This document shows, piece by piece, positions 23,329-23,968 of a stretch of 64,000 bases of DNA (position 1 is its first letter; each line of letters starts with the position of its first letter). The DNA is from Escherichia coli O157:H7 (lineage in GTDB: Bacteria > Pseudomonadota > Gammaproteobacteria > Enterobacterales > Enterobacteriaceae). The stretch lies in assembly GCF_013167455.1 (NCBI RefSeq), contig NZ_CP038328.1; one strand, given 5' to 3'. The position numbers and the translations under genes were made by a program. Below the pieces are notes generated by a model. That model made no database searches and was not told the DNA's origin. It saw only the letters and a list, made by a program, of their open reading frames with translations.

Positions 23329-23968
23329 TTATTTACTGTTGTGTAACAAAGTTATAACACCATCCACCATCTGAGCCATTTTCTGATAATTCAATCTGTC
23401 TGCTGTATCACCGGGCAAGTGGTATTGTTTATTACGATAAAAAGCGGTGTCAGTAATCATTACGGCGAGAATATCGTGTTGCCAATAATTAAGGTGGTCA
23501 GAGAAATCAATACCGTGAATAAACCATGGGGCATTCATAGAATAAACAGATAAATCCCGGGATGATAACAATGCCGTTTTTACCTGACGAACGGCGTTGA
23601 TATCCTGTATTCTGCCGACCAGGCAATAAAGTCCCCCCGATCGGGATAAAGCCAGGACATTGCGGGTAAGGGTAATCCTGGCTACCAGGCGCAGAGTCGT
23701 AATAGCCAATTGGGGACGCCCTGCGCGGTAACTCTGGCACCGCTACTGACAAAGACCTTTTTTTATATACTCTACGGACCTATTCAGATTATCAATATTG
23801 TCGGCATTACGTGGATGCACAGTTTGTGTAAGATAACGAACTGTTTTTTCTAATTGCTCAGGAATTACGTGTCGGGGCGTTGGCGATAATGCAGTGACCC
23901 AGGGTTGGTAAAAAATAATCAGAGGGAGTGAAAACAGAAATAATATAACAAAAGGAAAATTTTTTTCA
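23329..23968 (-). pseudogene. yfbL: decayed M28-family peptidase gene (yfbL-like)
   Basis: ATG at 23968 followed by A7 run then early stop; signal-peptide-like and peptidase-like sequence continues in another frame, hits an in-frame TAG, and the C-terminal M28-like segment (TDTAFYRNKQYHLPGDTADRLN) is in ORF 23329..23709; total ~213 codons versus ~320 expected, central catalytic core missing. Confidence 0.6.

Follow-up and report, generated by a model that had tools for sequence, protein, structure and literature searches.

The closest described relative of the locus treated here is yfbL of Escherichia coli K-12 (b2271; WP_000719999.1), which lies between elaD/yfbK and yfbM and encodes a 323-aa M28 family metallopeptidase. 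The intact K-12 protein matches the Pfam Peptidase_M28 profile (PF04389) with 90.6 bits over residues 95-317; it aligns with the Aeromonas/Vibrio aminopeptidase chains 1AMP and 3B3T over their H-x-D, DD and EE motifs, with E about 1e-10, and also with 2EK8. For the archetype of the M28 family, the aminopeptidase of Aeromonas (Vibrio) proteolytica, the established metal ligands are H97, D117, E152, D179 and H256, with E151 as the catalytic residue. Counting along the printed alignment to 1AMP and 3B3T places the alignment-derived equivalents in YfbL at H113, D133, E166, E195 and H294, with E165 as the catalytic Glu.

Disabled copies of yfbL are also on record, with RefSeq/PGAP pseudogenes in O157:H7, O145:H28, O121, E. 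coli B derivatives and many B1 strains. A full-text literature search for "yfbL" yielded no publication about the pseudogene; the one relevant item was a preprint on resistance to phage N4, according to which yfbL and yfbO deletion mutants of K-12 are specifically resistant to that phage and are complemented from plasmids (2025, bioRxiv 10.1101/2025.09.29.679331).

Identity and setting of the locus

The window, meaning the whole stretch of 64,000 nucleotides that was analysed, belongs to an E. coli O157:H7-type chromosome. Along its minus strand lie rbn, elaD (24358-25581), a remnant of yfbL and yfbM (22723-23226, DUF1877), with nuoN on the plus strand at 21199-22656, giving the synteny elaD - (yfbK remnant) - yfbL - yfbM - nuoN. 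Position and nucleotide homology together identify the remnant as the yfbL ortholog by descent: its retained parts are 91-93% identical to intact alleles (about 91% to that of K-12, with which it shares the start and stop codons), though it measures only 641 bp as against 972 bp for the K-12 gene. A 901-bp query covering the locus has matches in 5,353 of the 5,426 complete genomes of E. coli, and is 100% identical to the corresponding region of O157:H7-type chromosomes such as those of 2017C-4109, strain 116 and NCCP 15739.

The remnant is almost certainly a pseudogene of yfbL, the gene for a predicted M28-family zinc aminopeptidase, without function and passed on vertically. It carries disabling lesions relative to intact orthologs, these are reproduced over independent assemblies, and PGAP flags accompany them, which marks it as a unitary pseudogene decaying in situ. 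As such it is already known, and ordinary: the NCBI pipeline labels the locus a "frameshifted" pseudogene in 2017C-4109, NCCP 15739, O145:H28 RM13516, ES6, O121 WL1277, 2023CK-01509 and CUVM53, and it gives the identical sequence the product names "hypothetical protein", "zinc-binding metallopeptidase family protein" or "M28 family peptidase". An earlier note, made from the window sequence by itself, had described a decayed yfbL-like M28 peptidase gene. Both the pseudogenization and the reality of an internal deletion stand; its list of lesions was incomplete, two 1-bp deletions having been overlooked, and the start it placed at 23968 is off by one (Table 1).

Lesions and reading frames

Base-level alignment to three intact alleles, those of K-12, RIVM_C037791 and 605, defines five frame-breaking lesions, which scatter the homologous sequence over six frame segments. 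Beyond the loss of codons 88-196, the copy in the window differs from K-12 yfbL by four frameshifts, and nothing is left of the continuous start-to-stop ORF of an M28 family member.

Table 1. Features of the yfbL remnant, in coordinates of the window
Feature	Position	Strand	Description	Basis
Whole yfbL pseudogene remnant	23329-23969	-	Ancestral ATG to ancestral TAA stop	Alignment to K-12 yfbL (L002:5103-6074), synteny, PGAP label
ATG (23969-23967), A7 (23966-23960) and T4 (23959-23956)	23956-23969	-	Frameshift 1	Alignment and frame translation
Segment homologous to YfbL residues ~6-70	23765-23955	-	Signal peptide and N-terminal region; +1 frame relative to ATG	Translation, alignment
Second A7 run	23758-23764	-	Frameshift 2; G>A and one inserted A; AAAAGA in K-12 and every other allele examined	Alignment, exact 80-mer matches
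Junction of the 326-bp deletion	23710-23713	-	Between 23712 and 23711; K-12 nt 262-587, codons 88-196	Alignment
1-bp (G) deletion	23663	-	Frameshift 4; K-12 CCCGGCAATG -> CCCGCAATG	Alignment
1-bp (G) deletion	23621-23622	-	Frameshift 5, between 23622 and 23621; K-12 GCCGTGGTC -> GCCTGGTC	Alignment
Last 96 codons and stop	23329-23619	-	K-12 residues 228-323 in a single frame; codons 23619-23332	Translation

The minus strand reads ...TTTACAT ATG AAAAAAA TTTTCC... around the start codon, with TAATCTTTGC in K-12 in place of TTTTCC; the first lesion thus leaves the remnant a net 4 bp shorter than K-12 (ATG-A7-TAATC) immediately 3' of the A7 run. The frame opened by the ATG does end after 16 codons, as had been noted (MKKIFLLLYYFCFHSL*, with its stop at 23921-23919), and one base added at the A-run indeed gives MKKNFPFVILFLFSLPL..., a frame of 75 codons that reads ...KNFPFVILFLFSLPLIIFYQPWVTALSPTPRHVIPEQLEKTVRYLTQTVHPRNADNIDNLNRSVEYIKKGLCQ and then meets a TAG at 23745-23743. 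Inserting an A at this point keeps a frame open as far as the TAG, but the implication that one A has gone missing does not follow from comparison with the intact gene, since A7 follows the ATG in all three intact alleles just as it does in the window, the next bases in the intact alleles being TAATC or TAACA. Loss of one A is possible, as one of several equally possible routes to A7T4. Among the dead alleles the tract takes the form A6T4 in 2023CK-01509, A7T4 in O157, O145:H28 and CUVM53, A8T1 in O121 and the allele L012, A9T1 in ES6 and A8T4 in the read assembly L011; because it is so unstable among them, slipped-strand mispairing at homopolymer tracts is likely to be the mechanism. The A8T1 form is in frame, and the nearest dead allele whose predicted start is in frame is that of L012, where the product P0001 (MKKNPFVILF...) continues as far as the deletion junction.

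The second frameshift, the +1 A at 23758-23764, is confined to the O157:H7 lineage, being found in neither the O145:H28 nor the B1 alleles, and could serve as a marker of that lineage. It is also the source of what had been taken for a separate lesion, an in-frame stop. The TAG at 23745-23743 is no nonsense mutation; it appears because the added A causes the true frame's AGT-AGC (Ser-Ser) to be read in the wrong register. What looks like an in-frame stop in a pseudogene can thus stem from a frameshift, and this one is a cautionary case. The first two lesions total -3, and the true frame (VFVSSGARVT...) is briefly back in register with the ATG.

Of the two single-base deletions downstream of the junction, that at 23663 is shared with the O145:H28, ES6 and O121 alleles and is absent from 2023CK-01509, CUVM53 and L012, while that at 23622/23621 is shared with ES6 and O121 and is absent from O145:H28.

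Loss of the catalytic core

The 326-bp deletion is out of frame, 326 being no multiple of 3. The ortholog alignment that the earlier note had called for bears out its estimate that the gene falls about 110 codons short of a full M28 enzyme, and likewise its impression that no zinc-ligand core is left: H113, D133, E165, E166 and E195 all lie in the missing segment, so that four of the five M28 zinc ligands have been removed along with the catalytic Glu. In terms of 1AMP and 3B3T, the remnant keeps only the equivalent of H256, those of H97, D117, E151/E152 and D179 having been deleted, and it thus has neither the co-catalytic zinc site nor the catalytic Glu that characterize the family. At the junction itself, base 23711 shows a lineage-specific G>A change.

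The fifth ligand, H294 in K-12 numbering, is the His of NKQYHLPGD and is the only one held by the C-terminal segment. That segment had been called intact and peptidase-like. This is right for the last 96 codons of the 126-aa ORF at 23329-23709; the two 1-bp deletions put the first 30 codons of that ORF out of frame. Against the Pfam M28 profile the 126-aa ORF scores 17.3 bits, below the gathering cut-off of 21.3 bits and over profile positions 143-191 only, so it does not qualify as an M28 member, and the conceptual 75-aa N-terminal product has no Pfam match. With frames as predicted here, production of a peptidase from the remnant is impossible.

Distribution and history among E. coli alleles

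An identical 326-bp junction is found in all 8 short alleles examined (O157, O145:H28, ES6, O121, 2023CK-01509, CUVM53, L011 and L012). The same holds for the RefSeq/PGAP pseudogenes: the O157:H7 records are identical to the window copy and the others have the same junction, with secondary lesions that depend on the lineage. Since the deletion is the only lesion common to every short allele examined, we infer that it came first. Nor did it depend on the frameshift at the start tract, because the N-terminus of L012 (P0001) is in frame up to the junction; the two 1-bp deletions are likewise absent there. The founding event would then have been the out-of-frame loss of codons 88-196, after which further lesions could have accumulated without constraint, lineage by lineage. 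The additions in O157:H7 would be the frame error in the A/T tract after the start codon, the O157-specific +1 A and the two single-base deletions, and other lineages have acquired extra lesions such as the loss of single bases from a T6 run and at K-12 nt 153 and, in ES6 and L012, of 7 bp close to the 3' end. The locus is of little importance in itself, being a correctly sequenced and typical case of accessory-gene decay in E. coli, though it illustrates cleanly how a founding deletion can be followed by frameshifts peculiar to each lineage.

The short form is estimated to occur in some 1,900-2,000 of the 5,426 complete E. coli genomes, or about 35%, a figure that rests on evenly spaced samples of match lists. 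With the 901-bp query, 15 of 40 sampled rows were single-piece; with a query over the junction, which has 2,321 records at 80% coverage or more, 16 of 20 sampled rows with such coverage were single-piece. The start haplotype of the window, followed with an 80-bp query from the start region, is present in 2,009 genomes, E. coli B derivatives included, and in 29 of 30 sampled rows of that DNA search the locus was annotated as a pseudogene. A protein search for an intact allele with the N-terminal haplotype of the window returned only 26 short fragments and nothing of the full 323 aa, in a word-index search that missed even the YfbL of K-12.

Over its first ~25 codons yfbL varies to an unusual degree, intact alleles included, and the 326-bp junction is joined to at least four signal-peptide haplotypes (P0001, P0002, P0006 and P0008: MKKNPFVILF, MKKINFAFIIL, MKKITPLCFISL and MKITIPLCFISL). 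The 1-bp deletions fit no simple tree, the lesion at 23621/23622 being present in B1 strains and not in O145:H28, and recombination or parallel events must therefore have had a part in the history of the locus. Several haplotypes on one junction, taken together with lesions that are not tree-like, point to intragenic recombination, to an old polymorphism, or to both. Pooled Nei-Gojobori pN/pS over the retained segments is 0.36 for the short alleles vs 0.27 for the intact ones, from small counts and non-independent pairs, a slight excess that would not by itself establish relaxed constraint.

Alternative explanations

The link to phage N4 raises the question of whether natural loss of yfbL might be an adaptive resistance allele, with phage pressure maintaining or driving the polymorphism between intact and deleted forms, in place of neutral decay. 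In the window lineage yfbL is dead and yfbN-yfbO-yfbP is wholly absent. A dead yfbL together with a missing yfbO allows such speculation without supporting it, and we regard an adaptive origin as improbable. If the connection of yfbL and yfbO with N4 is true, the natural null alleles would be ready material with which to test it.

Each of the remaining alternatives is more doubtful still. The earlier note had left room for a homopolymer assembly error layered on a real deletion, so that the A-run next to the start would be miscalled by one base and only the deletion genuine. Homopolymers are error-prone, and a Logan read assembly (L011, SRR14865458) does have A8 in place of A7 in an otherwise identical allele; its product P0003 is exactly the 75-aa product that the note had hypothesized. 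An 80-mer around the start tract, however, with its A7T4, is found exactly in 336 complete-genome records of O157:H7 and O145:H28 strains, and one around the second A-run in 298; the genomes concerned are complete, independent of one another and of many origins, the 336 coming from many laboratories and platforms, and such agreement refutes the error and shows the sequence to be real. The A7 is also what the intact alleles have after the ATG. Repair of the A-run would in any case fail to rescue the gene, because four other lesions stay, and this is just what L011 exemplifies: it still has the +1 A and lacks the 326 bp as well as both single bases, so that its A8 makes no functional gene. For function it is immaterial whether that A8 reflects an error in the reads or genuine slippage. 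A miscall at the start tract can accordingly be given hardly any credence, and the preferred reading remains a real, multiply disrupted pseudogene.

The range of run lengths from A6 to A9 could also be read as the mark of a contingency locus, in which the A-run after the ATG would toggle expression through slipped-strand mispairing. The differences in length occur only in alleles that have already lost the catalytic core, where there is nothing to switch; the run is A7 in all three intact alleles examined, and the tract is fixed within the O157:H7/O145:H28 group, as the 336 identical records attest. Phase variation is accordingly very unlikely.

Finally, some part of the remnant, such as the 126-aa ORF or a secreted N-terminal fragment, might have been co-opted as a functional small protein, an idea favored by a pN/pS below 1 in the retained segments and by the 96 uninterrupted C-terminal codons of the window allele. 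The signal-peptide frame is severed from the ATG, though, with no canonical start in the restored frame before a GTG at 23820, and no yfbL start is in frame with the C-terminal segment, whose ORF opens with the 30 out-of-frame codons. Elsewhere the same segments are broken in different ways, as in ES6 and L012, which have lost 7 bp close to the 3' end; nor is there any Pfam match above threshold. The low pN/pS is accounted for by polymorphism that came down from functional alleles or was exchanged with them. Co-option thus seems highly implausible beside simple loss of function.

Neighboring sequences

A divergent neighbor of yfbL in K-12, the vWA-domain protein gene yfbK, is also reduced to a remnant in the window (~24096-24287, plus strand), with ~130 bp kept at the 5' end, 40 bp at the 3' end and 1,558 bp (K-12 L002:3278-4835) gone. 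This loss is independent of the yfbL deletion, since it is also seen in strains in which yfbL is intact (RIVM_C037791 and 605). Between yfbM and nuoN, where K-12 has the 2.56 kb of yfbN-yfbO-yfbP, the window has 17 unrelated bases (22705-22721); at the same spot RIVM_C037791 carries an IS200/IS605 tnpA.

An Rfam scan of the whole window detected no RNA family in or near the yfbL locus. Its sole match is the nuoG motif RF01748, on the plus strand at 12422-12464 (50.3 bits), a short way 5' of the 910-aa nuoG ORF, where one would look for it in a nuo operon. A consensus scan for promoters and terminators gave weak AT-rich matches only, to which no evidential value is attached.

The deubiquitinase gene elaD is intact in the window, at 407 aa. 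In other strains it too is annotated as a pseudogene, being frameshifted in strain 605 (L006:1041-2253) and interrupted by an internal stop in CUVM53 (L010:1015-2238).
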